Shown: positions 3,916 to 63,991 of the stretch, in pieces
Position numbering within the stretch: position 1 is the first letter of the stretch
Layout of the letters: every line of letters begins with the position of its first letter
Source: Alphaproteobacteria bacterium
Lineage (GTDB): Bacteria; Pseudomonadota; Alphaproteobacteria; JAJTHO01; CANGYM01
Direction of reading: 5' to 3'
Assembly (NCBI GenBank): GCA_044371315.1
Contig: JBILTX010000001.1
Span: 1,907-65,906, forward strand
Length of the DNA: 64,000 nt
Position numbers and translations under genes: made by a program
The notes under the pieces: generated by a model
What the model was told of the DNA's origin: nothing
Databases searched by the model: none
What the model saw: only the letters and a program-made list of their open reading frames with translations

Positions 3916-5895
3916 TTATCCCACCAGACGCAGCAACTGCTGGGGCATCTGGTTGGCCTGGGCAGCAACCCCAACCGCAGCCTGCAGCAAGGCCTGGTTT
4001 TTGTAGAAGTTGCTGGATTCCGCCGCAAAGTCCACATCAACAAACTGACCGTTGGCCGCGTTGCTGTTTTCAATAACGGTGGTTAGGTTGGTGTCGATTT
4101 GGCTGAACCGGCTTTGCAAGGCACCGATTTTGGCGGTGTTCTTGTTCAGCGTGTCGATGGCTTCATCAATCACCCCCTGCGCGGCTTGGGCACGGGCCGC
4201 CGTGTCAATGGCAATCAAATTGGCGCCATTGGCGTCGGTGATGCCCAATTCTTTGGTCGATACAGAATCCAACTCAACAGAGATAAGATCATTGAATGCA
4301 TCCAAACCAACCTGTGTGGTCACAGAGGTTTTTCCAGATTTTTCAACGTCAAAGCGGAATTGGTAGTTGTTGGATCCAAAGGTCACTTGTTGGAACGTTT
4401 CATCAGCGGCAAGGGTCGATGACGTTCTACGCAACTGATCGTTGGTAAAGGTCAATTCCACCCCGTTGCTGAAGGAAACCGTTGTCAAATTGGCATTATC
4501 ATCAATGTCAGACACATCCTTAACTACAGCGTCGTACGTCTGACCCTTTTGATCCTGAATGCGGAATGTGGTTGTGTCCGCATGGGAATCAAAGCTGGAG
4601 GTCAGGGTATACGTGCCGGCGGCTGTGCTGCTGGAGGCTTTCAGGATATTGTCATAACCACCCGCGGTTTGGGCCGTGGAGGTTGTGCCCAGTCCTAAGG
4701 ATGTCAGCGGAGTTCCTACACCGTTGGCAAGCGTAAAGGTCGATGCAGGATCCAGAGAGTATAAAACAAGATTCAATCCTCCGGTACCCGCAGAAGCATC
4801 ATCTCTTAGGGTTGCCGCTACCCCTGTTTGTTCTGAAATAGCATTGATTTTGTCCCGTATGGATCCAATGCCTTCATTGAGCGTAAGAGCTGCTGTAGTT
4901 GCAGATCCAGTGCTTCCCGTAATCGTAATTGTAGCCAGTGCCGCAGCAGCCGAAGGGGTAGCTTCTGTTGCAAAGTCCAAGGTACTGACAACACTGGATA
5001 CAACCGTAGTATCCGATCGGAATGCATTGGCTGTTTCTGTGATGTTGGCAGCGCGGAAGACAACTTCACTGCCCCCTGTGCCCACACCCAGAATTTGTTT
5101 CAGGTCGCTTTCCATGGTGTCTTCAGTTCCTGCTGTGACAACCAAGGCACCGTCAGCGTTAGATATTGTAAACCCATTGTTGTCGTTGGTGGTGCTTTTA
5201 AACTGAATGGTGCTGCCTATTGCTGCGTTTTGCTTCACTTCACCGCGAAAGGTTTCCATTTGGGCACCATTTTTGATATCCATTTCGATGATGTAATTGG
5301 TGTTGGCATCGTTGCGTGTTACGCGTACGTCATCAATGGTCCCCTCAACAGCACCGGTGTAGTTACTAAGGGCAATGTTAGTATTATTAAAGTAAGTTCC
5401 ATCTAAAGTTTGTAAGGAACTGTTTACAATACCAGCAGTGGTCACGTTGGTGCCCGCTTTAAATGTGGCATTGGCACCGCCTGCCAGTAATTTAATGCCG
5501 TTCATTTGGGTTTGGTTCACGGTGTTGTCGATCTGCTTGATCAATTCGCCGAATTCTTCTTGGGAAATCAGACGCTCAGCATCGGACAGGGTTCCGTTCA
5601 CGGCCTGTGTGGACAGGGTTTTCAAACGGGTTAACAATTCACTGACCCGTGTCACACCCCCACCGGCAATCTGCAGCAAGGATGATGTTTGTCCGGCGTT
5701 CACTTTGGCCTGGGTTAATGTGGCAATGTTGGATTTCAATTTGTTAGAAATAGCGAGTGAAGCCGCATCATCCGAAGGGCGCACAATACGCGAACCCGAT
5801 GACAGCTTTCCAACACTGGCAGCGGCATTGCGCGAGTGGATGTTGATATTGGCATTAGCGGCTTCAGCAGAGCTGTTGGTTAAGATACTAGGCAT
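3916..5895 (-). CDS. flagellin (659 aa) with a large central hypervariable domain
   Basis: N-terminal flagellin D0/D1 region (LSSGSRIVRPSDDAASLAISNKLKSNIATLTQA, NAGQTSSLLQIAGG). C-terminal D0 region (NSNAANGQFVDVDFAAESSNFYKNQALLQAAVGVAAQANQMPQQLLRLVG). The middle region is rich in T, S, G and N. Confidence 0.9.
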   Translation of the reverse strand: MPSILTNSSAEAANANINIHSRNAAASVGKLSSGSRIVRPSDDAASLAISNKLKSNIATLTQAKVNAGQTSSLLQIAGGGVTRVSELLTRLKTLSTQAVNGTLSDAERLISQEEFGELIKQIDNTVNQTQMNGIKLLAGGANATFKAGTNVTTAGIVNSSLQTLDGTYFNNTNIALSNYTGAVEGTIDDVRVTRNDANTNYIIEMDIKNGAQMETFRGEVKQNAAIGSTIQFKSTTNDNNGFTISNADGALVVTAGTEDTMESDLKQILGVGTGGSEVVFRAANITETANAFRSDTTVVSSVVSTLDFATEATPSAAAALATITITGSTGSATTAALTLNEGIGSIRDKINAISEQTGVAATLRDDASAGTGGLNLVLYSLDPASTFTLANGVGTPLTSLGLGTTSTAQTAGGYDNILKASSSTAAGTYTLTSSFDSHADTTTFRIQDQKGQTYDAVVKDVSDIDDNANLTTVSFSNGVELTFTNDQLRRTSSTLAADETFQQVTFGSNNYQFRFDVEKSGKTSVTTQVGLDAFNDLISVELDSVSTKELGITDANGANLIAIDTAARAQAAQGVIDEAIDTLNKNTAKIGALQSRFSQIDTNLTTVIENSNAANGQFVDVDFAAESSNFYKNQALLQAAVGVAAQANQMPQQLLRLVG

Positions 5896-12047: not shown

Positions 12048-13859
12048 ATGGCCTCTTTCCTATCCGCCCCCCTGTCGCACAGGCTTTCGCCCGTGATTTT
12101 GCCGTTGTTGTTTGTTTTGGGGATGAAGATTCTGCCCATCATGACCCAGCCGCAAAACTGGACAGAAACGATGACGGATCCCGATGCAATTTTGCGTTTG
12201 GTGGTGGTGGATAATCTGATTCAAACGGGGGACTGGGGGGATCATCGGATTCATCGGACCAACCCCCCCACGGGAACCGTGACCCCGTGGACACGGCCCA
12301 TGGATGGTGTGGTGTTGACAGGGTATGCGTCCATGCGGTTATTTTTGGATGAAAAACAGGCCCTCATCGGATCGGCCATGATCATGCCGCCGCTGTTGTT
12401 TGTTTTGGGGCTTGTCTTTGTGTGGCGATGGATGGCGTCACAGGGGATGCCGATTTATGCCCAGCTCTTTGTTTTGATGGCTATGGCTCTTAATCCGTGG
12501 TTCAGAGCGTTTGATCCTGGTGCCGTTGATCATCATGGCTTGCTTTTGGTGTGTGCTTGGATGCAGTTTCTTTTGACCTATAGCGTGATTCAGGGTAGGG
12601 GGCATCACGCCCCCTACTTGGCCATGGTTACAGGATTGGGAATATGGGTTTCCCCTGAATTTTTTATCGTGTCATTTTTATCGTTTGCGGGGTTGGCCTT
12701 TTGCTGGTTAAGGTGCCCTAGGGAGTATCACGCGCCTTTTTTAAACGTTCTGTGGATCACAACCTTGATTCTGGCGGTGGCTGTTGGGATAGAGCAGCCT
12801 GTGTTTTGGGTGCCTTTTTATGACACGGTTTCTGTGGTTTACGTGGCGTTGTTGGCCATGATGACGGCGGGCTTTTGGGCCCTGAAAGCAACAGAGCGTC
12901 ATGATCTGTGGGACCGTTTGTTTTTTGCGGTGGGTGTATTGATTTTAATTTTGGGGGTTATGCGGTGCCTTTATCCGGAATTTTATAAACTCACCATGGG
13001 GGGGCTAGATCCCTATATCATAAAGTCTTTTTTGCCCAGCGTGTCGGAACAACAGGCGTTGGTGGATGGCTTTAAAGATATTTTTCCCCCCCAACCGTGG
13101 ATAGGGATTGTGGTTTCTCATCTTTTGTTTTTTTTGGGATACGGGTTTTTCTTTCATCGGCTGAGGGTGACGAGGGGGGAGTTTTTTCAGGGACATTCTC
13201 CGGACCTCTTCGTGTTTGTTTATGCGGTGGTGACCTTAGGGTTGGGGGTGGCAGTGGTGCGCCTTTATCCTTATTCCCTTTTGCCTGGGGTGTTTTTATT
13301 TTTGCCTGTTTTGGATGCGTTGGTTAAAACGCCCAAACTCTCCGCTTTATCCGACAGTTTAAGAGCGTGCTGTGTGATCATTATAGCGGCTGTGCCCATG
13401 TTGAGTTTGGCGTTTTTGATGAGTTTGGCGGAACTTTGGCCGTCATCGCAAAAAGATGGTGTGGATAATGCCTGTGATGACGATACGCGGGTTTTTATCC
13501 AAAACGCCCTGATGCCCGCCCTGCCCCAAGCCCATTTGATTTTCACCCACAACAACGATATGCCCGCGTTGCTGTTTTGGACCCCCTACACGGCCTTGGC
13601 GGGGAATTATCACAGAGAGCCTGCCGCCCTGAAAGATTTGGCAACGTTTTTTTCCGCCAAGACAGAGAGCGAAGCCCAAGCTTTGATCCAAAAACATCGT
13701 CCCGATGCGGTGATTGTGTGTTTAAAACGGGCAGAGCCCCGTGGCCGCTGGATTTATGATGTGGCCACTGGAAAAATCAACCCACCCGACGGCCTGAAAC
13801 GTATTTCCACAGACGAAAAGCTGTATCCTAACATTCGGCTGTATCAGGTCAGCCCTTAA
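12048..13859 (+). CDS. large polytopic membrane protein (603 aa) with a C-terminal soluble domain; possible GT-C-like glycosyltransferase
   Basis: More than 10 hydrophobic helices and a first loop with DPDAILRLVVVDNLIQTGDWGDHRIHR. The soluble C-terminal part is about 150 aa. Family assignment is uncertain. Confidence 0.6.
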   Translation: MASFLSAPLSHRLSPVILPLLFVLGMKILPIMTQPQNWTETMTDPDAILRLVVVDNLIQTGDWGDHRIHRTNPPTGTVTPWTRPMDGVVLTGYASMRLFLDEKQALIGSAMIMPPLLFVLGLVFVWRWMASQGMPIYAQLFVLMAMALNPWFRAFDPGAVDHHGLLLVCAWMQFLLTYSVIQGRGHHAPYLAMVTGLGIWVSPEFFIVSFLSFAGLAFCWLRCPREYHAPFLNVLWITTLILAVAVGIEQPVFWVPFYDTVSVVYVALLAMMTAGFWALKATERHDLWDRLFFAVGVLILILGVMRCLYPEFYKLTMGGLDPYIIKSFLPSVSEQQALVDGFKDIFPPQPWIGIVVSHLLFFLGYGFFFHRLRVTRGEFFQGHSPDLFVFVYAVVTLGLGVAVVRLYPYSLLPGVFLFLPVLDALVKTPKLSALSDSLRACCVIIIAAVPMLSLAFLMSLAELWPSSQKDGVDNACDDDTRVFIQNALMPALPQAHLIFTHNNDMPALLFWTPYTALAGNYHREPAALKDLATFFSAKTESEAQALIQKHRPDAVIVCLKRAEPRGRWIYDVATGKINPPDGLKRISTDEKLYPNIRLYQVSP

Positions 13860-13890
13860 ATAATTATTTGGTGCAATAATTATTTGGTGC
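13857..13890. repeat. tandem 16-bp direct repeat AATAATTATTTGGTGC x2 that includes the tRNA-Leu 3' end
   Basis: Seen directly in the sequence. The repeat unit is GCACCA plus the palindromic AATAATTATT in the tRNA orientation. Confidence 0.6.
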
Positions 13891-13970
13891 CCCAGGAGGG
13901 ACTTGAACCCCCACACCCTTGCGAGTAGCAGATTTTGAGTCTGCCGCGTCTACCATTCCACCACTGGGGC
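13885..13970 (-). tRNA. tRNA-Leu (anticodon CAA)
   Basis: Reverse complement folds as a type II tRNA. Acceptor GCCCCAG/CTGGGGC, anticodon loop CTCAAAA, long variable arm, T-loop GGTTCAAGTCC, encoded CCA. Confidence 0.9.
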
Positions 13971-14079: not shown

Positions 14080-14163
14080 GCGGTCGTGGCGGAATGGTAG
14101 ACGCGCAGCGTTGAGGTCGCTGTGGGGAGACCCGTGGAAGTTCGACTCTTCTCGACCGCACCA
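14080..14163 (+). tRNA. tRNA-Leu (anticodon GAG)
   Basis: Acceptor GCGGTCG/CGACCGC, anticodon loop TTGAGGT, long variable arm, T-loop GGTTCGACTCT, encoded CCA. Confidence 0.9.
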
Positions 14164-53536: not shown

Positions 53537-54603
53537 TTTTGGATAATTATTTGTGGTTTCGTTTGTGGCAACGATGGCTTTTGCTGCTGGGGGTGATGGT
53601 TATTATTTTGTATTCCATTGATTTTTTGGCGCAAATTCGGGAATACGATCACTGGCCCGTGTTGGATGTGGCCAAAATGGTTGTGTATCGGTTGCCGATG
53701 CTTTTGGATACAGCCTTGCCTTATCTTGGTTTTTTGACTGTTTTTTTTACATTTTCTAGCCTTCAAAATGCCAATGTTTTTGATGTAATGCGCTCGTCAG
53801 GATATTCTTGGCGTCGTATTATGGCGGTTTCCGCTTTGTTTGCTTGTGTTTTGGGGCTTTTTCATATCATTGTGTTTGAAAATATGCGTCTGCGGGCCCA
53901 TGAGGTTTATCAGGATTTGTTGTCCGATCATGGAGATGCCCCAGAACATCCTTTTAAGGGGCAGGATATTTGGTTAACCTCTTCTTTTCCCTCAGAAACG
54001 ATTGTTTTGCAGGCCAAAGCCTTTCGAGACGGTGCTTTTCAGAATGTTTCTCTTGTTGTTCTGGGGCCAGACAATGCCTTAAAAAACCAGATCCGCGCTG
54101 AAAAAGCAGAAATTAGGGATGGTGTGCTTGTTGTGGAAAAGGGAGACTCTTGGGCTTCTGGAACCAAAGAACCTCTTGGGCCCCAAGGGGTGCGCTTGCC
54201 TTGGGGGGGGCAATCTAGGGAAGACCTTTTAAGGCCCAGCCCACCAGAAAAGACATTTGTATCCGTAATGCGTGATTTTTTTCAGAATGGGGATAATCTT
54301 TCAAGGATCCATCCAGAGGAAACACGGGTGTTTTGGCAGGGAGCAGCTCGTCCATTGTATTATAGCGCGTTGGCGGTTTTGGCCACAGTGGCGCTGCTTA
54401 GCAGTCATCACCGCACGCGTTCTTTTGTGCCTTTTGGGGTTAGCGCGGTGTTGATGTTCGTTTTTCATATGGCCACGAACGTGACCGTGCATTGGGCCAA
54501 TCAGGGATTGCTGCCGTTTTGGTATGCCTTTTTATGGGCGTCAGTTCTCTTGCTTTTCGGATCTTTTTTGGTTTTAATGCGTCGCACATATGGCGCGGTA
54601 TGA
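53533..54603 (+). CDS. lptG: LPS export ABC permease LptG
   Basis: Second YjgP/YjgQ-family permease. Its start overlaps the lptF stop (ATGA). Confidence 0.8.
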   Translation: MILDNYLWFRLWQRWLLLLGVMVIILYSIDFLAQIREYDHWPVLDVAKMVVYRLPMLLDTALPYLGFLTVFFTFSSLQNANVFDVMRSSGYSWRRIMAVSALFACVLGLFHIIVFENMRLRAHEVYQDLLSDHGDAPEHPFKGQDIWLTSSFPSETIVLQAKAFRDGAFQNVSLVVLGPDNALKNQIRAEKAEIRDGVLVVEKGDSWASGTKEPLGPQGVRLPWGGQSREDLLRPSPPEKTFVSVMRDFFQNGDNLSRIHPEETRVFWQGAARPLYYSALAVLATVALLSSHHRTRSFVPFGVSAVLMFVFHMATNVTVHWANQGLLPFWYAFLWASVLLLFGSFLVLMRRTYGAV

Positions 54604-56725
54604 CTTTTTTTTGGCGATGGTTTTTATCTGGCTGCTGCTGGTTCCAGCAGCGGCGGAATCCATAACGGTGAAAGATGTCGCCGTGAAAGCCGATGTCCTA
54701 ACCCTCAATTATGAGGGGCGAACCATCCAAGGTGAGGGGAATGTTGTCTTAGAAAGTCAAGATCATCGCCTAACGTCGGACACCTTGACCTATAATGAAA
54801 AGACTGGCGAAATCACCGCCGCAGGCCATGTTGTTTTGTTGGATAAAAAAGAACAAACAACCCTGAAAACGGATCATGTTGTTTTGGATGGTGATTTTCG
54901 CTCTGTTACGCTTGAAAAGATGCGTTTGCTGTTTCAGAATAAAGGCACGCTCACGGCTTCTTCAGGACAGCGGCGTTTGGGGAAAGAGCACGATTTAAAA
55001 GACGCGCATTTTACGCCCTGCAAAGTCTGTGAAGGCGAGTCCCCCCTGTGGTCGGTGGCAGCGGATGAGGTCAAGCATGATACAGACTCCAAGGTGATTC
55101 GTTACTATAATGCGTATTTTCAAATCTTTGATGTGCCTGTGTTTTACTTGCCGTATTTTGAACAGGACGATCCTACGGTCAAGCGTTCCAGTGGCTTTTT
55201 GCGGGGATCCGTGGAGCAGCGATCAGAAGAGGGGATTTTGATTCGCGCCCCATATTATTACACCATGTCCCCCCATCAGGATGTCACCGTCACGCCCATC
55301 TGGACCCAAAATGGGGGGGAGGTTTTGGGGATGGAGCATCGGTATCTAGGGGAAACCTTTGGGATTACATCCACGGGGTCCATCGGTAGTGTCAATCGTG
55401 TGGAAAATACCCAGTTGCAGGATGATAAAAATGCGGCTGGTCATTTGGATTCTGCGTTGGATTGGCAACCTGCGCCTTTTTGGCAGGTGGATGGGGATTT
55501 GGAACGTGCCAGCCGGAAAGGGTATCTGCGTCAGTTTGATTTTGATCAGCGGGACATTCTTTCCAGTGGGGCGCGGACCCTTTATCATCGTGGCCCAACA
55601 ACCTTTGTGACGGATGCCCGCACGTACCAAGATTTGCGCCCTGCTGAGGACAGCGATACCGTGCCATGGGTTTTGCCGGATACCAGCCTGTCTCATTTTT
55701 GGGAATCCCCATCGTGGGCGAAGGGATCCCTAAGCAGCGGCGTTTCGGGGCGTGTTCTTGAGCGGGATCAAGGCAACGATAATCAGCGGGCCAGTGTTTT
55801 TAACGCTTGGCAACGGCAGTTTTTTGCATCTGATGGCAGTGTTTTTGAAACATCGGCGCTGCTGCGCCAAGATATTTATCATCGGGATGTTTTTTCAAAA
55901 GCGCAGGATGCCGTGGTGGAATCCGATACCAAGGCCCGTTTTTTTCCGGCCCTTCAGGCAGGGTATAAAAAACCGTTTTACAAAGCCACGGAATCGGGGT
56001 TTCACCAGTTATCTCCTGTGGCGCAGGTGGTGGTGATCCCCACCAATGTCAACAGCGATACCATCCAAAACGAAGATTCTCAGGTTTTTGAGTTGGATGC
56101 GGACAATCTGTTTTCTGTGAACCGCCCCACAGGGTATGATATCACCAGCGAAGGCAGCCGCGCCGATTATGGGGGATCCTATGCGTATCAGGGGGAGACG
56201 TATCTGGCGGACCTCTTTTTGGGCCAAAGTTTCCAGTTCGATCAGCCCACCACAGAGGCATTGCTGGCCGGTGGGGAAGGGGAGGATTTTTCCGATCCCG
56301 TGGCGCGGTGGCAGTTGGCATTTCCGGGCTTGCTGTCCTTTGATCACAGCATGCGTTTGCATGAAAGTGATGGTCGCATTGCCCGCAGTCTGGCCAACCT
56401 TAGTACGGAATTTGGTGGCTTTACCACGAGCTTTACCCATTTCCTGCTGGATCGGGGTCAGGATTATCAGGAAACATCGGAAAAACGGGATGAACTTTCT
56501 GCAACCTTGGGCATTCCCCTGAATGAATCATGGATGTGGAGCAACACCGCCATTCGGGATTTGCAAAACGACGAAAACCGTTTGGCCCAAACGCAGTTAA
56601 CTTACACCATGGATTGCGCCCGCTTTTCGTTGGAGTATCGCAAAGATTACACCAGCGACCCCAATGCCACGGCCGGAAATTCCGTGATGTTTCGTATTGA
56701 TTTGATTGGGGCAGGATCCCCATAA
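54590..56725 (+). CDS. lptD: LPS-assembly outer membrane protein LptD
   Basis: Signal peptide, N-terminal OstA/LptA-like domain (YEGRTIQGEGNVVLESQDHRLTSDTLTYNEKTGEI), and a large beta-barrel. Length is 711 aa. Confidence 0.85.
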   Translation: MARYDFFLAMVFIWLLLVPAAAESITVKDVAVKADVLTLNYEGRTIQGEGNVVLESQDHRLTSDTLTYNEKTGEITAAGHVVLLDKKEQTTLKTDHVVLDGDFRSVTLEKMRLLFQNKGTLTASSGQRRLGKEHDLKDAHFTPCKVCEGESPLWSVAADEVKHDTDSKVIRYYNAYFQIFDVPVFYLPYFEQDDPTVKRSSGFLRGSVEQRSEEGILIRAPYYYTMSPHQDVTVTPIWTQNGGEVLGMEHRYLGETFGITSTGSIGSVNRVENTQLQDDKNAAGHLDSALDWQPAPFWQVDGDLERASRKGYLRQFDFDQRDILSSGARTLYHRGPTTFVTDARTYQDLRPAEDSDTVPWVLPDTSLSHFWESPSWAKGSLSSGVSGRVLERDQGNDNQRASVFNAWQRQFFASDGSVFETSALLRQDIYHRDVFSKAQDAVVESDTKARFFPALQAGYKKPFYKATESGFHQLSPVAQVVVIPTNVNSDTIQNEDSQVFELDADNLFSVNRPTGYDITSEGSRADYGGSYAYQGETYLADLFLGQSFQFDQPTTEALLAGGEGEDFSDPVARWQLAFPGLLSFDHSMRLHESDGRIARSLANLSTEFGGFTTSFTHFLLDRGQDYQETSEKRDELSATLGIPLNESWMWSNTAIRDLQNDENRLAQTQLTYTMDCARFSLEYRKDYTSDPNATAGNSVMFRIDLIGAGSP

Positions 56726-56735
56726 GGACGCATAG

Positions 56736-56758
56736 CCCCCGCGGTTTAAGGGCGGGGG
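56736..56758. terminator. GC hairpin between convergent lptD and the T4SS-like operon (possible bidirectional terminator)
   Basis: CCCCCGC-ggtttaagg-GCGGGGG. The loop contains the stop codon of the minus-strand gene. No clear U-tract on either side. Confidence 0.3.
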
Positions 56759-58296
56759 GATTGTGGAGTCCCCTCTTTGGGGCATGCGGATTCCAGCTCT
56801 TTTTGTTTTTCCCCAATGCGTGTGCTGATGGCACAGGTGATGTTCAGGATTCTGGGATTCCATTGATAATCGGGGTTTTGGGTGTAATAGGTCAAAAATT
56901 GCTGGGCCTTGGCGGCGTAGGCTTTGGCAAAGTTAATTTCCCCTGTCAGCACCCGTAGGGTTTCTCTGGGTTCGTTGGCAGCCAAGGGCAGATAAGCCGC
57001 CGCTTTTTTTTGCAGGTTGGCCTTCCTCTGGGCCAAAGACAGGGGTTTAGGGGACAGACCATCCAGACCCGACTGGTCCACGGTCATGAAAAATATGCTC
57101 ATATCCTCACGCTCGGCCTCAGCCTTGGCCACAGAGGGGGGGACCATGCGGTCATAATCGGCTTTCATGGTTTTCAGGTTTTTGGTGGATTCCTCAACCG
57201 ATCGACGCTGGTTTTGCAAAGCCGACATGAAAATAGTATTGTTTTTTAGGGACGGATCCTTGGCCAAAGCCTCTTCTGCGCGTTCCAGAGACTGTTGCTG
57301 GCGGCGAAGCGCAAAATCCTGACGTTGCATGGTTTCCTCAAACGCCATCCAGTTGAGGGTTGTGGGGTCATACAGTTGGCTGTGCTGTTTTAGGACGTTT
57401 TTCGCCAAGGCCGCGCGGTTTTCCCGCAGCAACCATGCGGGATTCTGGATGCCCGTCTGGCAGGCCAACAGTTGAAACAGGCCGCTGTTGTCAACGGGCA
57501 GGGGACGGTTCATCAAGGCTTTCACCCCGCGGGAAAATTGTTCCGAAAACACAGACCCCGTATCCGGCGTTTTGTTGGGAAAACAGGCGGGAACCTGACT
57601 TTGCATGGCGCCCAGGGTCAATCCGGCATCACTCAGCTGGGTCAGGGTTTCTGTGACGCCAGAGGCCGTCATGTCCATCAACGCGGTCAGCGAGGCCCCC
57701 ATCTGGGCACGCATCAATCCGGCCTGTTCCGCATCACGCTGGCGCATCAGCAAATCATCAAACAGTTTGGGATCCACACCAATGCCGCCCCCCCCATCAA
57801 CAGGGGAGATTTTCAGCGGCCCCAGAACGCTGGGATTGTCCTGCAAAATCTTTTGCATGGCAGAGGCCGAGGAGAGGGGCTGGCTATCGTCTATCGATAA
57901 CGGAATGCCAAAAATTTCACGCGGGGGCATGGGGGTTTGCTGTTTGCAACCCCGAATTTGGCGGTCGTAACGGTTTAGGTCCTGAAAAAATTTTTCGTAC
58001 GCCTGATCGGGTTTCAGGAAATAGGGTTGCAGGGCCTGAAACACAACGGCGTGTTGTTCGTTCAGGGCGATGATGGCCTCTTCATGGCGGATGGCGGCCT
58101 CGAACGTGGCTTGAAAGGTTTGGGGCACGCTATTCCCGCGAATCAGGGTTTCTGTGCTTTGCCACTGGGTGGCGGCGCTGCTGAGCTGACGCGCCTGCGC
58201 TTGGCTTTGCAAACATAGCAGGGTGGGGGTGTCAGGGGGCGCGGCCCCCGCCGAAGTTGCCGTCAAAGTGAACAAAAACAGGGTTAAAAATCGCAT
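56746..58296 (-). CDS. secreted protein (516 aa), last gene of the VirB3/VirB4-like operon
   Basis: Signal peptide MRFLTLFLFTLTATSAGA. No TM helix, Gln/Leu/Ala-rich. No recognisable family. Confidence 0.6.
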   Translation of the reverse strand: MRFLTLFLFTLTATSAGAAPPDTPTLLCLQSQAQARQLSSAATQWQSTETLIRGNSVPQTFQATFEAAIRHEEAIIALNEQHAVVFQALQPYFLKPDQAYEKFFQDLNRYDRQIRGCKQQTPMPPREIFGIPLSIDDSQPLSSASAMQKILQDNPSVLGPLKISPVDGGGGIGVDPKLFDDLLMRQRDAEQAGLMRAQMGASLTALMDMTASGVTETLTQLSDAGLTLGAMQSQVPACFPNKTPDTGSVFSEQFSRGVKALMNRPLPVDNSGLFQLLACQTGIQNPAWLLRENRAALAKNVLKQHSQLYDPTTLNWMAFEETMQRQDFALRRQQQSLERAEEALAKDPSLKNNTIFMSALQNQRRSVEESTKNLKTMKADYDRMVPPSVAKAEAEREDMSIFFMTVDQSGLDGLSPKPLSLAQRKANLQKKAAAYLPLAANEPRETLRVLTGEINFAKAYAAKAQQFLTYYTQNPDYQWNPRILNITCAISTRIGEKQKELESACPKEGTPQSPRP

Positions 58297-58311: not shown

Positions 58312-59505
58312 TTATTTTTGACATTCTTGGGGGACGAAGTAGGTCGGATTATGGCAAACGCTGTTTAGGGATTCGCTCAACAGTTTCATGCTTTGCAGGT
58401 GGGCTTTGTATTGCTCCAGCAGGCTGCGATCGGCCTCCAGATTTTGGATTAGGGCCAGACTGCGGTTAATGCACCCAGAAATTGGCATTTCTATTTCTTT
58501 CAGGCGCAGGGAAAAGTTACCCAATCCCCCCAGATTGACCCCAAGACCTTCCGCTAGGTTGGCTAATCCTTTGATCGTATCCAAAAATTTCTGGGTTGTG
58601 TTTTTATTAAACACCGAATAATCCTCCACACAGGGTTCGTACAGGGTTTTGGGGATGTAATTAAAAAAGACTTCCCGCATGCGGGCATGCACGCGCAGCA
58701 GATCCGAATAGGCATTCATGCTATAGGCCGCGTGGGCCAACGTGGCACTTTTGCACGTATCGATAAAGCATTGTTTTTGTGCGGTAAACACCGTGTTATT
58801 GCGACAGTCTTTCTTCAAATCCATCATCTGTGCCAGATTGTTTTGGGCACAATTCATGATGTATTGGGTTTTTTGGGCGGGGGTGATTTGTTTTTGTTGG
58901 ATGGCCAGTTCCGCCAAACTTTCGCAGCGCAAACACCCGAAATCTGTGGGGGCGCCCCCTGTTTGGGTGGATGCCTCAATCAGGGCTTTGATTTTTTTAT
59001 CGGGCATGCCGATGGCGTTTTTGATACCGCTGAGCAAATAATACTGCTCGCCCCGTTGTTGCAACAGGTAATCCAGTTGGGCAGAGGTATCCTTAAACTC
59101 CTTCACCCGCAGGGTTTCATAAAACTGCCGACTGCCCGGCAGCATGGTCAGGTCCGTCACACAAAACCCCGTTCCGCACCAGAGGGCATTGCAGGGGATA
59201 TACATGTGACAGAGATTGGTCCCAGGGAAGGGGGGCGTTTGTTTACAGACGCACGGTCTGGTGGACGACAGAGGGTAACAAATCCCATCCACACACGGCT
59301 CCAACGGACTCACCGGCACAATGGGCGGCGGCGGGACAGAGGGCACATATGCGGGCGGCCCCTTTAACCCCAACAAACTGGTGGCCGCTCCAGCCGCTCC
59401 GGCGACCTTAGAGGCCCCCGATGCCACCGCCGTCGGATCAACGGCCCCCGCCCCCGCCGATATCCCCAGCATCAGCAAAAACAGGATCAGATGGCGCATG
59501 ATCAA
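58312..59505 (-). CDS. Cys-rich secreted protein (397 aa, 18 Cys) with an N-terminal Pro-rich linker
   Basis: Signal peptide, PPAYVPSVPPPPIVPVSPLEP linker, then clustered cysteines (CVDGICYPL, PCVCK, LCHMYIPCNALWCGTGFC). Confidence 0.6.
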   Translation of the reverse strand: MIMRHLILFLLMLGISAGAGAVDPTAVASGASKVAGAAGAATSLLGLKGPPAYVPSVPPPPIVPVSPLEPCVDGICYPLSSTRPCVCKQTPPFPGTNLCHMYIPCNALWCGTGFCVTDLTMLPGSRQFYETLRVKEFKDTSAQLDYLLQQRGEQYYLLSGIKNAIGMPDKKIKALIEASTQTGGAPTDFGCLRCESLAELAIQQKQITPAQKTQYIMNCAQNNLAQMMDLKKDCRNNTVFTAQKQCFIDTCKSATLAHAAYSMNAYSDLLRVHARMREVFFNYIPKTLYEPCVEDYSVFNKNTTQKFLDTIKGLANLAEGLGVNLGGLGNFSLRLKEIEMPISGCINRSLALIQNLEADRSLLEQYKAHLQSMKLLSESLNSVCHNPTYFVPQECQK

Positions 59506-61205
59506 TCAGTCGCTTGATAGACAGGGGCTCCACTTTCAATCAGATCCCCCAGACTGGCACAGGCATTTTGCAAAATCACCTGTTCGGTGTTGACGTTGGT
59601 CATGACCAGATTGTACATGGACAGTCCGATCAGGACGTTCATTTGGCTCATCACCGAACCTTCGGCCAAGGAAGAGGCCTGTAACAGGGCGATGGAGGGG
59701 CAGAGTTCTTTGCCGCTTTTTGTGTCATAAAATTGGACTTTTTCGCATCGTTTTGGGTTCCCAGTGCCGGTGAACAATTCCTGAAACATTTTGGCGGGAA
59801 TTTGTTGTTTGCTGATGGCCGCGGCGGCGCAGCGGGATTTGAGCTGGCCTAGAAACAGACGTTTATTCGCCTCTTCGATCTGTTTGCATTTGGTGGTGCT
59901 GTTGTTGGCCATTTTGGGGTTGCATCTCAGCATGCTGAGCAAAAACTTTGCAATATCTGCGGTGTTTAGCGTTTGGTTGGGTGGTAGATTGGTTGTCCCC
60001 GCCAACGGGGTGTCTTTGGATAACGGGCCGGTTCGGAAAGAGTCTTCTGTCGCTCCCGCGACATCACCGAGCTGCGCTAAGACATTAGGGAAATCTGTTC
60101 TTGTCCCCATGGCCTCAAGGACGGGGAGACCAAACAGTCCTGCAAAATCATAGAACATACTTTTCAATGATCCTGCTGGTCCGGTGACTTCATCAGACAA
60201 TGCAAATCCCCCTTTGAGCAAACCACTACCAATTAAAAATCCTTGGACGGATCGGATGTAGGTCGTTAGTTGGCCCGCATCGAAGCCTTGGCCGCCCCCG
60301 AATGTCCCCACCAATGTAAAAATAGCCCCCCCGATTTGACCAATTTGCCCTATGTTTTTGGTGATGTCTGGGGAGAGGGCAATCCCAAATTTCCCCAATA
60401 CATCGGGAAGGTTTGTGAGGAAATTGAGACCCGATTGTGCGCAATTCAGGCCTCCGCCCTGACAGTTCCCTTGCAGACCTTGGAGGGCATAGTACGTATC
60501 GCCCAAATTCTCGCTCAGGTCTCGTACTTGTCTGGTAAACTTGGCAATATTGCCGAGGGGGTCGGATGGTTTCGCGATCAATGAGTCTTTCAGCGTGTAT
60601 CCTAGGGTGGCATTGGTGGAGGCAGATGGATCAAAGGCCCCGCTAAAGTCACCGGCAGGAGCAGGTACGTCAACGAGGGCGGGGGCAGAGGGATCAAAGG
60701 GATTAGGAGGCGTAGCCGTTCCCTGAGTAGGGGCCGGCGTCCCCGCCGGCGTAGAGGTAGCCGGTGTCGCCGCCGGAGCAGGGGTGCCAGATGTCGCCGG
60801 CGTAGTAGCCGGAGCAGCAGCGGCATTCACCTTTGCTGCCGCCGCTGGGCCTTCTCTTATGGCGTTATATGCAATGGAATCGCTGGTATAGGCGGCGTAC
60901 AATGAACTGGAAAATTCAGCCAAAATTGTGTCAGTGGTGGGGATGTCTTTTGCTTCCGCTGGGGCTTGGTATTTAATAGCCCCCAGAATCTTAGTTAGGG
61001 TTTCGTTTGTTGTTTTTTGGGCATTGTTCAGCTCAAGAAGCTTAATATTGAGATTGGCCAATGCAATGACTTGGCTCGTCAAAAGTGTCTGCGCCTTTGT
61101 ATCAGACACCATCACCACGGGCAGGGCAGAGGCCCCGTAAACGGGCATCAGCACCATTTGCAGCACCATCACATAGCATAACGTCCGTCGAAAGAGGGAA
61201 AGCAT
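59502..61205 (-). CDS. secreted protein (567 aa) with a coiled-coil N-domain, Pro/Ala/Thr low-complexity linker, and Gly-rich/Cys-containing C-terminal part
   Basis: Signal peptide, a heptad-like segment (QVIALANLNIKLLELNNAQKTTNETLTKILGAIKYQ), the AAAAPATTPATSGTPAPAATPATSTPAGTPAP linker, and GQIGQIGGAIFTLVGTFGGGQGF. Confidence 0.6.
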   Translation of the reverse strand: MLSLFRRTLCYVMVLQMVLMPVYGASALPVVMVSDTKAQTLLTSQVIALANLNIKLLELNNAQKTTNETLTKILGAIKYQAPAEAKDIPTTDTILAEFSSSLYAAYTSDSIAYNAIREGPAAAAKVNAAAAPATTPATSGTPAPAATPATSTPAGTPAPTQGTATPPNPFDPSAPALVDVPAPAGDFSGAFDPSASTNATLGYTLKDSLIAKPSDPLGNIAKFTRQVRDLSENLGDTYYALQGLQGNCQGGGLNCAQSGLNFLTNLPDVLGKFGIALSPDITKNIGQIGQIGGAIFTLVGTFGGGQGFDAGQLTTYIRSVQGFLIGSGLLKGGFALSDEVTGPAGSLKSMFYDFAGLFGLPVLEAMGTRTDFPNVLAQLGDVAGATEDSFRTGPLSKDTPLAGTTNLPPNQTLNTADIAKFLLSMLRCNPKMANNSTTKCKQIEEANKRLFLGQLKSRCAAAAISKQQIPAKMFQELFTGTGNPKRCEKVQFYDTKSGKELCPSIALLQASSLAEGSVMSQMNVLIGLSMYNLVMTNVNTEQVILQNACASLGDLIESGAPVYQATD

Positions 61206-61254: not shown

Positions 61255-63705
61255 TTAAGAATCGCTGTCAAGGTAGATGTTCAGCCAGTCGGATTGATAA
61301 TTGTGCATTAACCGCTCAGCCAACGCGCGGGAGGGTTCATCGGAATAATAAATCCGCATCAATCGGCCCAGCGGGGACAGGTCCGTGTCCAGAATGATGG
61401 ATTCCCCGCTGGCGCGTTTCATCAACACAGAGCGTTTCAGTTTTTTGGCGGCGGGCAGTTTGCCGCTGATGTATAGCCATTCCCGCTCGGTTAATCCCCA
61501 GTCCTGATATTCCCGCGCTTGGCCTTGGGGGTTGGGAAAGAAAAATGTGGTTTGCGCTTGGCCACGGATGGCCTCGCCCAGGCCGGCTTGGGTGATGGCC
61601 TCGGGCCGCTGGAATGCCGAAATGACGGCGCCGCGGCGTTTTCGATATTCCTGCAACATCTGCAAAAAATAATTCCGGAAAATGGGGTGTTTCACCACGG
61701 GTTCCGTTTCGTCAATGAAAATCAGGGCAGGGGCCTTTAATTCGGAAATCGTATCCTGAATCCGGTGCATCAGATACAAAATCACGGCCCGCGCCAAATC
61801 ATCGTGTTCATACAACCGCGTAAAATCCAGCGCCACAATGCGGGATGTTTTTAAATCTAGGGTGTCCTGCTTGGCATTAAAAATCTTTCCATAAACGGCG
61901 GGGTCCACCCATTTATGAAGATTTTTTCGCACCATGCCGCCTTTGCTGTACACCGCATCATAAATGTTGGCCAGCGATCGGCGTTCGTGTGGCAGGCCCG
62001 GTGTGTCATATGCGGCCTCAATAGAAAACCCAATTTCCTCGATGGCATCGGCGTCTTGGCATTCTGAAATGGCCTGCAAAAAGGCCCTGAGAAACGATCG
62101 GTTCGATGGATTATCTTTCAGCTGAAACGGATTCATGGACGATTGAATCCCGGGGATGTTGGATCCCTCAAAGGTCACATAACTGCCCGAGGTCGCGCAG
62201 GTAAACAGGTATCCCCCCCCGTGCCGATCCACCATATAATAGCGCAGATCTTCATGCCGCATGGCCATGCCCGCCAGAAAGTTGATCAGCGTGGTTTTTC
62301 CCCCTCCGGTGGGGCCAATGCTGACGGCGTGGGCGACGGCGGCTTTTTCCTCAGAAATATGAAACTGAAAGGCATAGGGTGTGCCAGAAATGGTCCGAAA
62401 GTTGGCGATGGCCCCCTTGCCCCAATCCGAGGAGCTCAGGCCCGGAGATGGCCGCTCAAACGTCAAATGTGTGGCAATGTTTTTGGAAAACAGTTTATAG
62501 GGGCGCGGCCATAATTTAAAACTGGGGAATTGCAAAAACCAGCTGGCTTGGGCGACGGCGCCCTCTCGCACCACAGAAATGCCGTAAGTGCTGGCGATGC
62601 GCTTGACTTCGGCTTCGGTGGCTTCCATTTCGTCTACGGTTTTGCCATAGCAAAACACCATCATCATGTATTGTGACAACACGTTGGTGCCGCCGGTGTT
62701 GCCCTCCACCGCATCCAGCGCGGTTTCAAACTGGGCGGCGGTGCCGGGACTGAACCGTTGGGCCAGTGACAGTTTGTATTGGTGGGTGATATGGATGGCG
62801 GCCTTGGTTTTGGTCCAAGGTTCAATGATGTGGGAAACAATAATTTCCCCGTGAACGGTGTTTAGCGAATTGACATAGGCTTCGTACGTAAAATCCCCCA
62901 ACGCCCGCAGACCCACGCAGCAGGCATAGAGTTTTTTATGGCCGGATGTAAAGGTAATGCCCCCATCATCCCCCCCAAATTCCACCTGATCGCCGCAAAT
63001 GGCATCCGATGCCCCATCCCCCACGCCCCCAGGCACGGGTTGAGAAATCGGGCTGACAATCCGCGAAAATACATAAAGGGGACGCATTTTCACATCGGGA
63101 TGGCCCTGCTTCATGACCACGGGCCCATATTTATGCAAAATGTTGCTGGTGATATCGATAACGGAATTGAGTTTTTTTTGGGATGTTTGATCTTTATCGG
63201 GCAAAGAAAAAACAACAAACTGGCGGTTGCTATAGGCGCGGGCAAAGGTGCCGTTCCAACGTCTGGCAATTTCCCGCAAAACAGGGTTGGCGTGGGTGGT
63301 GGGGGGGGCGACGTCCACCCGCTCGCGGATGGTAAAGGCCCGAATGGTGACATGATAATCCTGCAGGGCATCGATCCAATCCTTTCGCGCCAGCAGCAGC
63401 ATTTCCCGATCATGGTCACTCATGAACGTATCATCAAAACCCATCATTTCCACACATTGCGCCAAATCCCCATTTTTACAGGCGATGGTTTTCCCGTCGC
63501 TGAGCACCTTTTCAAAAGGCAAAACATCCGCCAGACGATCTTCTTTGGGATAGGGCAGCAAAATGCGGGCCGTGGTGGGAATCAAAATGGCCGCAAAGGC
63601 CACCCCTGCGGCAATAACCCCCAGCAGGGTCAAAAGAATGGAAGTCAGGCTGAAGTTTTCGGAAAACGCCGCCAACACATCGGGGGATAACGACTCAGGG
63701 AACAT
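61255..63705 (-). CDS. VirB4/TrbE/TraC-family type IV secretion ATPase (816 aa)
   Basis: Walker A GPTGGGKTT, Walker B ALIFIDE, and the C-terminal VirB4 blocks ISAFQRPEAI and QTTFFFPNPQ. Hydrophobic N-terminal segment. Confidence 0.9.
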   Translation of the reverse strand: MFPESLSPDVLAAFSENFSLTSILLTLLGVIAAGVAFAAILIPTTARILLPYPKEDRLADVLPFEKVLSDGKTIACKNGDLAQCVEMMGFDDTFMSDHDREMLLLARKDWIDALQDYHVTIRAFTIRERVDVAPPTTHANPVLREIARRWNGTFARAYSNRQFVVFSLPDKDQTSQKKLNSVIDITSNILHKYGPVVMKQGHPDVKMRPLYVFSRIVSPISQPVPGGVGDGASDAICGDQVEFGGDDGGITFTSGHKKLYACCVGLRALGDFTYEAYVNSLNTVHGEIIVSHIIEPWTKTKAAIHITHQYKLSLAQRFSPGTAAQFETALDAVEGNTGGTNVLSQYMMMVFCYGKTVDEMEATEAEVKRIASTYGISVVREGAVAQASWFLQFPSFKLWPRPYKLFSKNIATHLTFERPSPGLSSSDWGKGAIANFRTISGTPYAFQFHISEEKAAVAHAVSIGPTGGGKTTLINFLAGMAMRHEDLRYYMVDRHGGGYLFTCATSGSYVTFEGSNIPGIQSSMNPFQLKDNPSNRSFLRAFLQAISECQDADAIEEIGFSIEAAYDTPGLPHERRSLANIYDAVYSKGGMVRKNLHKWVDPAVYGKIFNAKQDTLDLKTSRIVALDFTRLYEHDDLARAVILYLMHRIQDTISELKAPALIFIDETEPVVKHPIFRNYFLQMLQEYRKRRGAVISAFQRPEAITQAGLGEAIRGQAQTTFFFPNPQGQAREYQDWGLTEREWLYISGKLPAAKKLKRSVLMKRASGESIILDTDLSPLGRLMRIYYSDEPSRALAERLMHNYQSDWLNIYLDSDS

Positions 63706-63991
63706 ATTTTCGGGTTCCGGGCTTTCCCTTAATCAAATTGCGCGTGGATCGCTTGCTATAGGCCCATGCGGGGAGCAGGGTCGCCATATGGGGTTCCTTG
63801 GCCCCTTGCGCCGCCAAAACCATATGGAAAAAAATCAAAGAAATGATGATCAACAGGGGGCTGACCTTAAACAATCCCCATGCATACACAATACCCAAGG
63901 CATGAAAGCCCATATTGATAATGGCGGGCATCATCGGTGCCCAAAACAGTGTGGCCGGACTGGCAACAGCGCGCATGACTTTTTCTGGCAT
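63695..63991 (-). CDS. VirB3/TrbD-like small inner-membrane protein
   Basis: 98 aa with two hydrophobic helices and an RAVASPATLFWAP N-terminus. It overlaps the VirB4-like gene by 11 bp, the typical virB3-virB4 coupling. The start is close to the window edge. Confidence 0.55.
   Translation of the reverse strand: MPEKVMRAVASPATLFWAPMMPAIINMGFHALGIVYAWGLFKVSPLLIIISLIFFHMVLAAQGAKEPHMATLLPAWAYSKRSTRNLIKGKPGTRKYVP

Follow-up and report, generated by a model that had tools for sequence, protein, structure and literature searches.

A hypervariable, mosaic gene in the VirB5 position of a chromosomal type IV secretion locus of freshwater Alphaproteobacteria

Introduction

Which protein occupies the VirB5 position of a type IV secretion system (T4SS) when the gene found there matches no VirB5 model? 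The determinants of target specificity in T4SSs are poorly understood, with VirB5 at the pilus tip as a prime candidate, and the question is raised by a 64,000-nt stretch of DNA from an alphaproteobacterium (GenBank assembly GCA_044371315.1, contig JBILTX010000001.1, positions 1,907 to 65,906 of the forward strand; this whole stretch is called the window below). In the window, the gene directly after virB4 encodes a 567-amino-acid (aa) protein, here called X, which an earlier note made from the sequence alone had likened to VirB5/TrbJ-type minor pilins. We found that the locus is conserved except for the X gene, which is hypervariable and a mosaic formed by recombination; this is the main feature of X and one that the earlier note had missed. 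As to the identity of the protein, its position and profile comparisons suggest, with a probability of about 0.65, that X is the VirB5-slot subunit of a chromosomal VirB-type T4SS and a greatly expanded, divergent descendant of VirB5/TrbJ minor pilins or stalk-tip proteins.

The X gene is a mosaic within a conserved locus

The X open reading frame (ORF; window 59502-61205, minus strand, 567 aa) runs from an ATG to a TGA (stop codon at 59502-59504) and, as had been claimed, directly follows VirB4, with a gap of 49 nt between the VirB4 stop and the X ATG. This spacer holds a GGGG Shine-Dalgarno-like motif, and the start codon is supported by M1, S3, L4, F5 and R6, which are nearly invariant in 41 homologues. 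The window was compared with nine related 20-kb loci (L001-L009). Amino-acid identity to the window across these loci is 94-99% for VirB4, 90-99% for VirB3 and 83-98% for LptD; it is 66-95% for Z and, in the full-length loci, 58-85% for Y, the two genes that follow X, and only 36-62% for X itself. Against L007, VirB4 is 99% and LptD 98% identical vs. 45% for X. At the DNA level the flanks match this locus at 93-100%; identity drops to 36-60% only between about 61000 and 59800 and is back to 95% at 59600.

When synonymous divergence (dS) was calculated against L007, we obtained values of 0.88 for X and 1.46 for its middle module vs. 0.10-0.18 for VirB3, VirB4, Z and LptD and 0.26 for Y. As the dS of X is 5-9 times that of VirB4, LptD and Z, the X alleles are far older than their genomic background and not simply faster-evolving. 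Against L002, the middle module showed a dS of 0.155, which is below that of VirB4 (0.356) and LptD (0.57), with the linker that precedes the module being saturated; a value under those of the flanking genes indicates a recent exchange of the module between lineages. The dS of the linker was saturated against four of six loci. Along the protein, the closest homologue of X switches segment by segment, with patches of 93-100% identity inside proteins that are 49-65% identical overall. The ratio of nonsynonymous to synonymous divergence (dN/dS, omega) was between 0.35 and 0.72 for X; Y and Z had values of about 0.2-0.35, and VirB3, VirB4 and LptD values of only 0.02-0.07. In a sister clade, the VirB4 proteins of L037 and L038 are identical and the proteins in the slot behind them only 68% identical, and the VirB2 pilin paralogues encoded upstream are 46-84% identical between strains vs. 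about 95% for VirB4.

No silent X-like cassettes, template repeats or partial copies were found in the window or the related loci, which argues that, within the available sequence, the variation of X is allelic and recombinational, not programmed. A diversity-generating retroelement or a pilS-like mechanism was considered as a source of the variation and is unsupported within this sequence, which holds neither cassettes nor templates.

The family to which X belongs comprises about 46 full-length homologues (519-627 aa), unannotated and all from freshwater metagenomes or metagenome-assembled genomes (MAGs); those with labels are named "Alphaproteobacteria bacterium" and come from Lake Mendota and the Rimov reservoir. 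Of the 1.84 billion representative proteins searched with a HMMER profile, nine matched, all of them members of the X family or their fragments, and judged by these searches X represents a narrow orphan family. Its ORF is intact at every locus examined, with a dN/dS below 1; together with the 46 full-length homologues, this shows that X is a real gene, beyond chance. Comparison of X with Y and of X with Z revealed no paralogy.

Architecture of the X protein

All features of X given here lie on the minus strand of the window. Kyte-Doolittle 19-mer peaks above 1.4 were found in residues 1-30 only (maximum 1.71 at 12-30); hydropathy and the near-invariant N-terminus place a predicted Sec signal peptide at residues 1-26 (61128-61205), with a putative cleavage site, YGAS/A, after the hydrophobic peak. 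The signal peptide proposed in the earlier note was thus borne out as a prediction, and X is predicted to be a secreted soluble protein without a membrane anchor. The mature protein begins with LPVVMVSD, which opens a conserved N-terminal head (residues 27-118, 60852-61127) delimited by invariant residues (V33, D35, A38, L42, Q45 and others) and by the secondary structure in AlphaFold2 (AF2) models, where a 41-residue helix (36-76) is followed by short helices at 91-104 and 111-118. The head had been described as a coiled coil; the long helix stood, with hydrophobic residues at 8 of its 11 a/d heptad positions, but a coiled coil as such is not shown. Residues 40-75 of this helix occur in two allelic versions in the family alignment.

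Behind the head lies a Pro/Ala/Thr (PAT)-rich low-complexity linker (residues 119-215, 60561-60851), recognized by composition, alignment and dS and already noticed earlier. Ala, Pro and Thr account for 57% of residues 116-215 (25, 18 and 14 per 100, respectively). The linker is predicted to be disordered, AF2 assigns it no secondary structure, and its length and sequence vary widely among homologues (mean pairwise column identity 0.37-0.57). Its DNA contains degenerate 27-nt (9-aa) tandem repeats (60725-60817; repeat search family D1), for which Tandem Repeats Finder gives a period of 27 and 2.3-2.4 copies.

The linker leads into a variable Gly-rich helical middle module (residues 216-409, 59979-60560), which carries the invariant pair C248/C255 and falls into at least three allelic classes in the family alignment; Gly makes up 20% of residues 216-330. 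A string search placed the Gly-rich hydrophobic segment GQIGQIGGAIFTLVGTFGGGQGF at residues 286-308 (60282-60350). This segment had been described as amphipathic but not truly transmembrane (TM), and the second part of the description holds, as a 19-mer hydropathy below 1.4 and an Eisenberg mean of about 0.63-0.65 make it too polar for a TM helix. Its amphipathicity is only modest, with a hydrophobic moment (muH) of up to 0.44, and not strong in either a helix or a strand. Within the segment, F302 is invariant and G304 nearly so.

The C-terminal Cys-rich helical domain (residues 410-567, 59505-59978), defined by conservation and AF2, contains long helices at 437-478 and 519-558, and pairwise column identity in the family is highest here (0.81-0.94 at 461-480 and 501-560). 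It holds the six cysteines counted in the earlier note (C428, C440, C459, C487, C502 and C549); C248 and C255 in the middle module and C10 in the signal peptide come in addition, and the eight cysteines of the mature protein are invariant in the 41 aligned homologues. The N-terminal 118 and the last approximately 158 residues are well conserved in the family, the middle is not. The proposal that X is a VirB5-like tip protein fused to an adhesin-like or pore-forming module did not hold up in this form: X looks like a protein whose middle was expanded between a conserved head and a conserved C-terminal domain, not like an end-to-end fusion.

The VirB5 slot and the chain of profile matches

The gene right after virB4 encodes VirB5, or an annotated T4SS protein of VirB5 size, in Agrobacterium pTi, IncN, R. 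etli, pXAC64, Lichenicola and Phaeobacter, in the last of these one tiny ORF later. VirB4 relatives were located in contigs at 66, 65, 59, 56, 55, 49 and 36% VirB4 identity. In nearly all of the contiguous relative operons the slot after VirB4 is taken by a protein of 238-538 aa with a predicted signal peptide and no family assignment, and in most of them a small lipoprotein-like ORF, VirB8 and VirB9 are encoded further downstream. Relatives with an uninterrupted operon (B2-B3-B4-...-B8-B9) showed no further VirB5 candidate within it.

The predicted mature N-termini of the slot proteins are alike: GIPVFD in L012, GIPTID in L013, VINID in L014, YPVVD in L015 and VPVLD in Microvirga, vs. FVVSD in Agrobacterium tumefaciens VirB5, GIPVID in RP4-type TrbJ and LPVVMVSD in X. 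The pattern, [IVF]PVxD followed by a long helix, is one seen in the reference sequences of this analysis and not a published definition. In hhalign comparisons LPVVMVSD of X stands in register with VPVLD of the short forms (E 0.012-0.06 vs. 0.06-0.15 in the control).

Profile-profile comparisons were made with mature sequences for the short-form and VirB5/TrbJ profiles and with reversed-sequence controls, which guards against the inflation of hhalign scores by signal peptides. The X family was matched to five metagenomic long forms of 466-538 aa (L012_499, L026_466, L039_531, L037_534 and L038_538) over 180 colinear columns with aligned cysteines (hhalign 90.9%, E 1.2e-6; control 0.19); this homology spans X residues 313-509 and is borne by the C-terminal domain, and a BLASTP comparison of X with L037_534 gave an E of 0.001. 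The five long forms in turn matched seven VirB5/TrbJ sequences (67%, E 5e-5; control 0.79) and the short forms, both at the N-terminal helix (48%, E 2e-4) and, colinearly, at the C-terminal helices (19%, E 1e-3; control about 0.1 in both cases). The short forms matched the seven true or annotated VirB5/TrbJ sequences (92.5%, E 5e-7; control 0.023). BLAST links were found between L012_499 and L026_466 (1e-17), L015_238 and Microvirga_273 (4e-14), and L014_285 and L028_377 (2e-13).

The long forms share with X the slot, a Gly-rich middle with which the middle module of X is colinear, a homologous Cys-containing C-terminal helical domain and hypervariability; stretches equivalent to the Gly-rich hydrophobic segment 286-308 are present in L012_499 and L026_466. 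They differ in that they are only about 18-28% identical to X where aligned and have no PAT linker, and in that L012_499, L026_466 and L039_531 carry an N-terminal Gly-rich extension that is absent from X. The operons of L026, L037 and L038 continue to VirB8-VirB9 and the L012 and L039 contigs end before that point, whereas the operon in the window stops after Z. As the long architecture is common to relatives at 62-66% VirB4 identity, it is older than the lineage of the window. On this chain and synteny X would belong to a long-form branch of very divergent VirB5-slot proteins, for which VirB5 ancestry is quite probable though not proven.

The slot proteins of the relatives offered further observations. 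The Gly-rich extension covers approximately 90-150 residues (genes at L012 10549-12048, L026 7618-9018 and L039 3751-5346) and precedes an internal VPVxD-type motif (AVHD in L039_531) and the helix that aligns with the mature N-terminus of VirB5; in L012_499 a second GIPVFD stands directly after the signal peptide. A homology search of 5.8 billion proteins with L012_499 returned only the query itself, which shows how fast the VirB5 slot evolves. The 510-aa slot protein of L013 (10441-11973) has a TrbJ-like start, GIPTIDFSNLGQNIQQ, with a weak TrbJ match (E 0.014), and weak matches to the surface-protein motifs aRib, Invasin_D3 and MiiA in its middle, which suggests an independent insertion of an immunoglobulin-like adhesin module. 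L015_238 is similar to the products of the next two genes, L015_521 (6e-6) and L015_232 (2e-7) (L015 10477-13543), and L014_285 to L014_845 (2e-4) (L014 10442-13846); by this paralogy within operons, some relatives carry several VirB5-like genes in a row.

Neighbouring genes and a split system

Upstream of X lie the VirB4 ATPase (816 aa, 61255-63705, minus strand; TIGR00929 at E 1e-100, PF03135) and a VirB3 candidate (98 aa, 63695-63991, minus strand). The PF05101 match of the latter (E 3e-4) is sub-threshold, at 21.5 bits vs. a gathering cut-off of 23.9, and was accepted on position and size. Downstream, the secreted 397-aa protein Y with 18 cysteines (58312-59505, minus strand) is tightly coupled to X, the TGA of X standing 2 nt before the ATG of Y (TGAtcATG); Y is moderately variable (omega about 0.3), its ends more so than its centre. 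The last gene of the operon fragment is Z (56746-58296, minus strand), which encodes a secreted, Gln/Ala-rich helical protein of 516 aa with weak BLASTP similarity to the products of genes in the corresponding position, L025_324 (3e-4) and L012_471 (0.003). Neither Y nor Z matched a Pfam or NCBIfam family or showed similarity to VirB5, and a hydropathy scan revealed no TM segment beyond the signal peptide in X, Y or Z.

The order in all related loci is four or five VirB2/TrbC-like genes, VirB3, VirB4, X, Y, Z and housekeeping genes. Five VirB2/TrbC-like pilin genes stand 5' of virB3 in L009 (4732-7181), with equivalents in L001-L008; in the genome of the window they fall just past its right end. 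Two of the five pilin genes (217 and 189 aa) each hold two VirB2-like halves. In the lineage of the window the operon stops after Z, next to the convergent lptD (54590-56725), while the operons of relatives at 55-66% VirB4 identity (L013, L014, L026, L028 and L037) go on to the small lipoprotein-like ORF, VirB8 and VirB9. VirB6 and VirB8-11 were not found at the X locus, in either the window or the related loci. Since they are absent and the operon stops after Z, the T4SS of this lineage is split.

The window represents ordinary chromosome, with genes for flagellin, DAHP synthase, IleRS, cytochrome oxidase, BamB, Der, threonine synthase, ndk, lptF, lptG and lptD. None of the ORFs inspected in the vicinity of the T4SS genes encodes a relaxase or integrase. 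The source organism looks free-living, as the window carries genes for flagellin and for the biosynthesis of amino acids.

A metagenome scan with a VirB4 alignment gave, among the matches listed, only VirB4s at 38% identity or less. The closest VirB4 relative from a cultured organism is encoded on plasmid pMVF16-3 of Microvirga sp. VF16 (L010, 671088-683300), at 36% identity and with the same length of 816 aa; its cluster is complete (B2-B3-B4-273-228-428-58-B8-B9-B10-B11) and adjoins a MobA/MobL relaxase, and VirB4 and the four following genes are annotated as hypothetical. Telmatospirillum is another cultured genus with a related system. A secretin gene (PF00263) stands directly after VirB8-VirB9 (CagX) in L013 (16743-18368) and L028 (10857-11858), and two unassigned ORFs after VirB8-VirB9 in L015 (17183-18475), where a prepilin peptidase (A24) and TcpQ also precede. 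The secretin beside T4SS genes could reflect fusion with an outer-membrane module of the type IV pilus or type II secretion system kind, or an adjacent pilus cluster.

Weighing the identity of X

Several observations weigh against the interpretation of X as a VirB5-slot subunit with a mosaic gene. Neither X nor any of the 41 family members matched a Pfam or NCBIfam model even at E up to 10. Direct hhalign comparison of the X family with the seven VirB5/TrbJ sequences was not significant, and when the N-terminal head was taken alone, neither the long nor the short forms nor true VirB5 gave a significant match to it. The AF2 models of X were of low confidence: that of full-length X had a predicted local distance difference test score (pLDDT) of 31.9, and a core construct, composed of residues 27-118 and 410-567 with full-length homologues as alignment rows, reached a pLDDT of 55.1 and a predicted template-modelling score (pTM) of 0.42 (58-75 pLDDT in the C-terminal domain). 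Foldseek searches of the PDB with this low-confidence core model gave no match at E <=0.001, only generic helical bundles with template-modelling (TM) scores of ~0.2. The likeness of the X N-terminus to [IVF]PVxD is only suggestive, and the link to VirB5 is of moderate strength, as it consists of synteny and of transitive matches, made with profiles that hold between two and seven sequences each. Elsewhere in the genome, of which the window alone was seen, there could be a gene for a canonical VirB5 beside those for VirB6 and VirB8-11, and the localisation, oligomeric state and target-contact role of X are ones that we infer. Part of the apparent mosaicism could stem from chimeric metagenome assembly of co-existing strains.

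When the VirB5 of A. tumefaciens, a true member, was put to this test, it did not match PF07996 either and touched TrbJ models through its first 50 residues only, so the lack of a model match of X carries little weight. PDB sequence and profile searches gave no match for X or any of the 41 family members, and PDB sequence searches with its positional counterparts L014_285, Mv_273 and L013_510 gave no VirB5 match. VirB5 is a three-helix bundle with a loose globular region, and its homologues are only 23-27% identical (PMC11873049); the three conserved helices of 40-42 residues in X are compatible with a three-helix bundle, which is no proof of one. TraC (1R8I) and TrwJ are examples of that bundle. 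Fold comparison, as proposed in the earlier note, therefore neither confirms nor refutes the VirB5 assignment, and the likeness to minor pilins stands by slot, predicted secretion, profile chain and synteny but not by a direct sequence or model match. A Campylobacter sequence (Cj_B5) was dropped from the VirB5 profile, since it has no signal peptide and looks unrelated.

The same evidence bears on a rival that we consider unlikely: X could be an accessory protein peculiar to this lineage (a secreted adhesin, a factor of the periplasm or an effector, for example) that happens to stand after virB4 and does not descend from VirB5, with the true VirB5 encoded elsewhere alongside VirB6 and VirB8-11. 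The missing direct match to VirB5/TrbJ models and sequences, the low-confidence fold models without a Foldseek hit and a length 2.5 times that of a usual VirB5 would all fit such a protein, as would the truncated operon of this lineage, whose remaining T4SS genes lie elsewhere. Against this, X is homologous (E 1.2e-6) to long forms in the same slot that themselves match VirB5/TrbJ and the short slot proteins; contiguous operons of relatives show no second VirB5 candidate, and, as said, an absent model match weighs little. A possibility that refines the tip-protein reading and does not oppose it is that X, mounted at the tip, forms pores or inserts into membranes in the manner of ClyA-type toxins, which are elongated helical bundles with a hydrophobic tongue; residues 286-308 would be the inserting element. 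The predicted all-helical structure with one moderately hydrophobic, Gly-rich segment between helices and the equivalent stretches in long-form relatives speak for it, as does the resemblance of pentameric VirB5 to pore-forming proteins and its superposition on Hemolysin E (PMC9259494). The ClyA pore 2wcd_A did appear at Foldseek rank 6 for the X core, but with a probability of 0.06 and a TM-score of 0.15 on a low-confidence model, which is no evidence. Moreover, the segment lies in the most variable module, differs between allelic classes and lacks strong amphipathicity, and neither PDB sequence searches nor the search of 1.84 billion proteins revealed sequence similarity of X to ClyA-type toxins. 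Pore formation by X is improbable.

A kinship with VirB6, for instance with the large extracellular domains of Rickettsiales VirB6 paralogues, was suggested for comparison in the earlier note. In the rvh system of Rickettsiales the T4SS is split, a number of large genes come after virB3-virB4, and VirB2 is present as several paralogues, a layout that the X locus superficially recalls. VirB6, however, is a polytopic membrane protein (PMC9259494), and X, Y and Z are without TM segments beyond the signal peptide; the large profile search returned the X family only, and a relative (L014) has a separate TrbL/VirB6 gene. The VirB6 reading is effectively refuted. It is also very improbable that the hypervariability is an artefact of chimeric assemblies or decaying pseudogenes. 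Metagenomes or MAGs are indeed the source of all X sequences, and where strains live together, their conserved stretches are places at which an assembler can join one to another. Yet the ORFs are intact and full-length in nine loci and 41 homologues, with eight invariant cysteines and an omega below 1, and the same alleles were recovered from independent sources and samples (P0005, for example, on nine contigs from JGI, ENA and Logan). Assembly cannot create a dS of 0.9-1.5 within a gene, and the deep allelic divergence of X cannot stem from it.

A model for X and comparison with known systems

If X is the VirB5-slot subunit, it would be exported by Sec and its signal peptide cleaved near residue 26, as predicted from the sequence. 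The eight invariant cysteines may form disulfides in the periplasm. By analogy with R388, whose TrwJ/VirB5 pentamer sits on VirB6, later lies at the pilus tip and is needed for pilus biogenesis (PMC9259494), the conserved head and C-terminal domain would make up the core by which X attaches to the machine and to the VirB2 pilus, and the middle of approximately 290 residues, with its disordered PAT spacer and Gly-rich helical module, would be displayed distally and contact the target surface. As the comparison of loci shows, this middle, and to a lesser extent the first helix, consists of old, diverged allelic modules that are shuffled between co-existing lineages by homologous recombination, while the flanking machinery stays near-identical. 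Such a pattern may reflect selection of the diversifying or balancing kind, acting on how targets are recognized or on how recognition is evaded, as in TrwJ and TrwL of Bartonella, and selection exerted by targets, competitors or predators could keep many X modules in circulation. A bolder version, which is quite doubtful, would make X an exchangeable specificity cassette: its conserved ends would fit into the machine, the middle would be receptor-binding or membrane-inserting and decide which cells are engaged (bacterial competitors, kin or protists), strains would trade the old modules of this middle, which balancing selection would preserve, and Y could be a cognate partner or a protection factor of the Tpf kind. 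In the Xanthomonas X-T4SS, Cys-rich periplasmic Tpf proteins bind VirB5 and block fratricide (bioRxiv 10.64898/2026.05.09.723464).

Compared with VirB5/TrbJ proteins (A. tumefaciens VirB5, pKM101 TraC, R388 TrwJ and RP4 TrbJ; PF07996), X shares the position directly after virB4, a predicted Sec signal without an anchor, and a predicted all-helical structure with long conserved helices at both ends; its mature N-terminus, followed by a long helix, is suggestive of the xPVxD type. The extreme divergence of X has its equal among accepted members, and the chain of profile matches links it to the family. It differs in its length, 567 aa vs. about 220-260 aa (220-256 aa for the true VirB5/TrbJ sequences that we fetched), which agrees with the earlier statement that it is more than twice as long as VirB5; approximately 290 middle residues, the PAT spacer and Gly-rich module, have no counterpart. 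X further has eight invariant cysteines, vs. none in A. tumefaciens VirB5 and in the short forms Mv_273 and L015_238, matches no family model directly, and could be modelled only at low confidence.

Hypervariability in VirB5-type proteins is not new in principle, being preceded by IncI2 VirB5, CagL and Bartonella TrwJ. Bartonella has diversified forms of TrwJ and TrwL, which are linked to adhesion that is specific to the host (PMC2883598). Systems of this Trw type have no coupling protein (VirD4/TrwB) and serve primarily in adhesion. The Trw system resembles that of the window in being a chromosomal VirB-type system of an alphaproteobacterium with several virB2 copies upstream of virB3-virB4, in which the predicted surface components (VirB2s and X in our case) are far more diversified than the machinery and recombination is involved. 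There, however, diversification occurs mainly by tandem amplification of trwJ-trwI-trwH and trwL within one genome, whereas X is a single-copy gene with mosaic alleles between strains, more than twice as long, in an organism that looks free-living. IncI2 VirB5, with a hypervariable region at its C-terminus (PMC11873049), and Helicobacter pylori CagL, with a hypervariable motif (PMC6488209), are likewise tip proteins with a defined variable region between otherwise similar systems. Yet the CagL motif is short and the IncI2 region terminates a VirB5 of ordinary architecture, whereas in X modules whose synonymous divergence is saturated take the place of about half of the protein (approximately residues 40-75 and 119-409).

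What is new in X is the scale, with roughly half of a 567-aa protein variable, and the modular shuffling of alleles with saturated dS beside 99%-identical machinery. New, too, are an architecture in which a PAT spacer is combined with a Gly-rich module and with four putative disulfides, the occurrence in freshwater Alphaproteobacteria that look free-living and have a split T4SS on the chromosome, and a family that escapes every current model. The locus amounts to a natural experiment, in which a near-invariant machine is equipped with a tip-slot protein rebuilt from interchangeable old modules, with variable VirB2 pilins alongside. Its alleles occur in freshwater bacteria that look free-living and come from sites where samples were taken many times over the years (Lake Mendota, Rimov reservoir). 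Should the middle of X mediate target contact, the allelic series would map which parts of VirB5 are bound by assembly and which are free for recognition. VirB5-slot proteins can evidently exceed twice the usual size and escape all current family models, so that an annotation pipeline would count VirB5 as missing from a T4SS of this kind.

Other observations in the window

Two further ORFs of the window stand apart from the T4SS genes. At 3916-5895 (minus strand) a 659-aa flagellin is encoded that has the usual N- and C-terminal helical domains, and the central approximately 430 residues of which gave no domain match at E <=1e-5. At 12048-13859 (plus strand) lies a 603-aa ORF with no Pfam match at E <=1e-5, which adjoins two tRNA genes (13888-13970 and 14080-14160).

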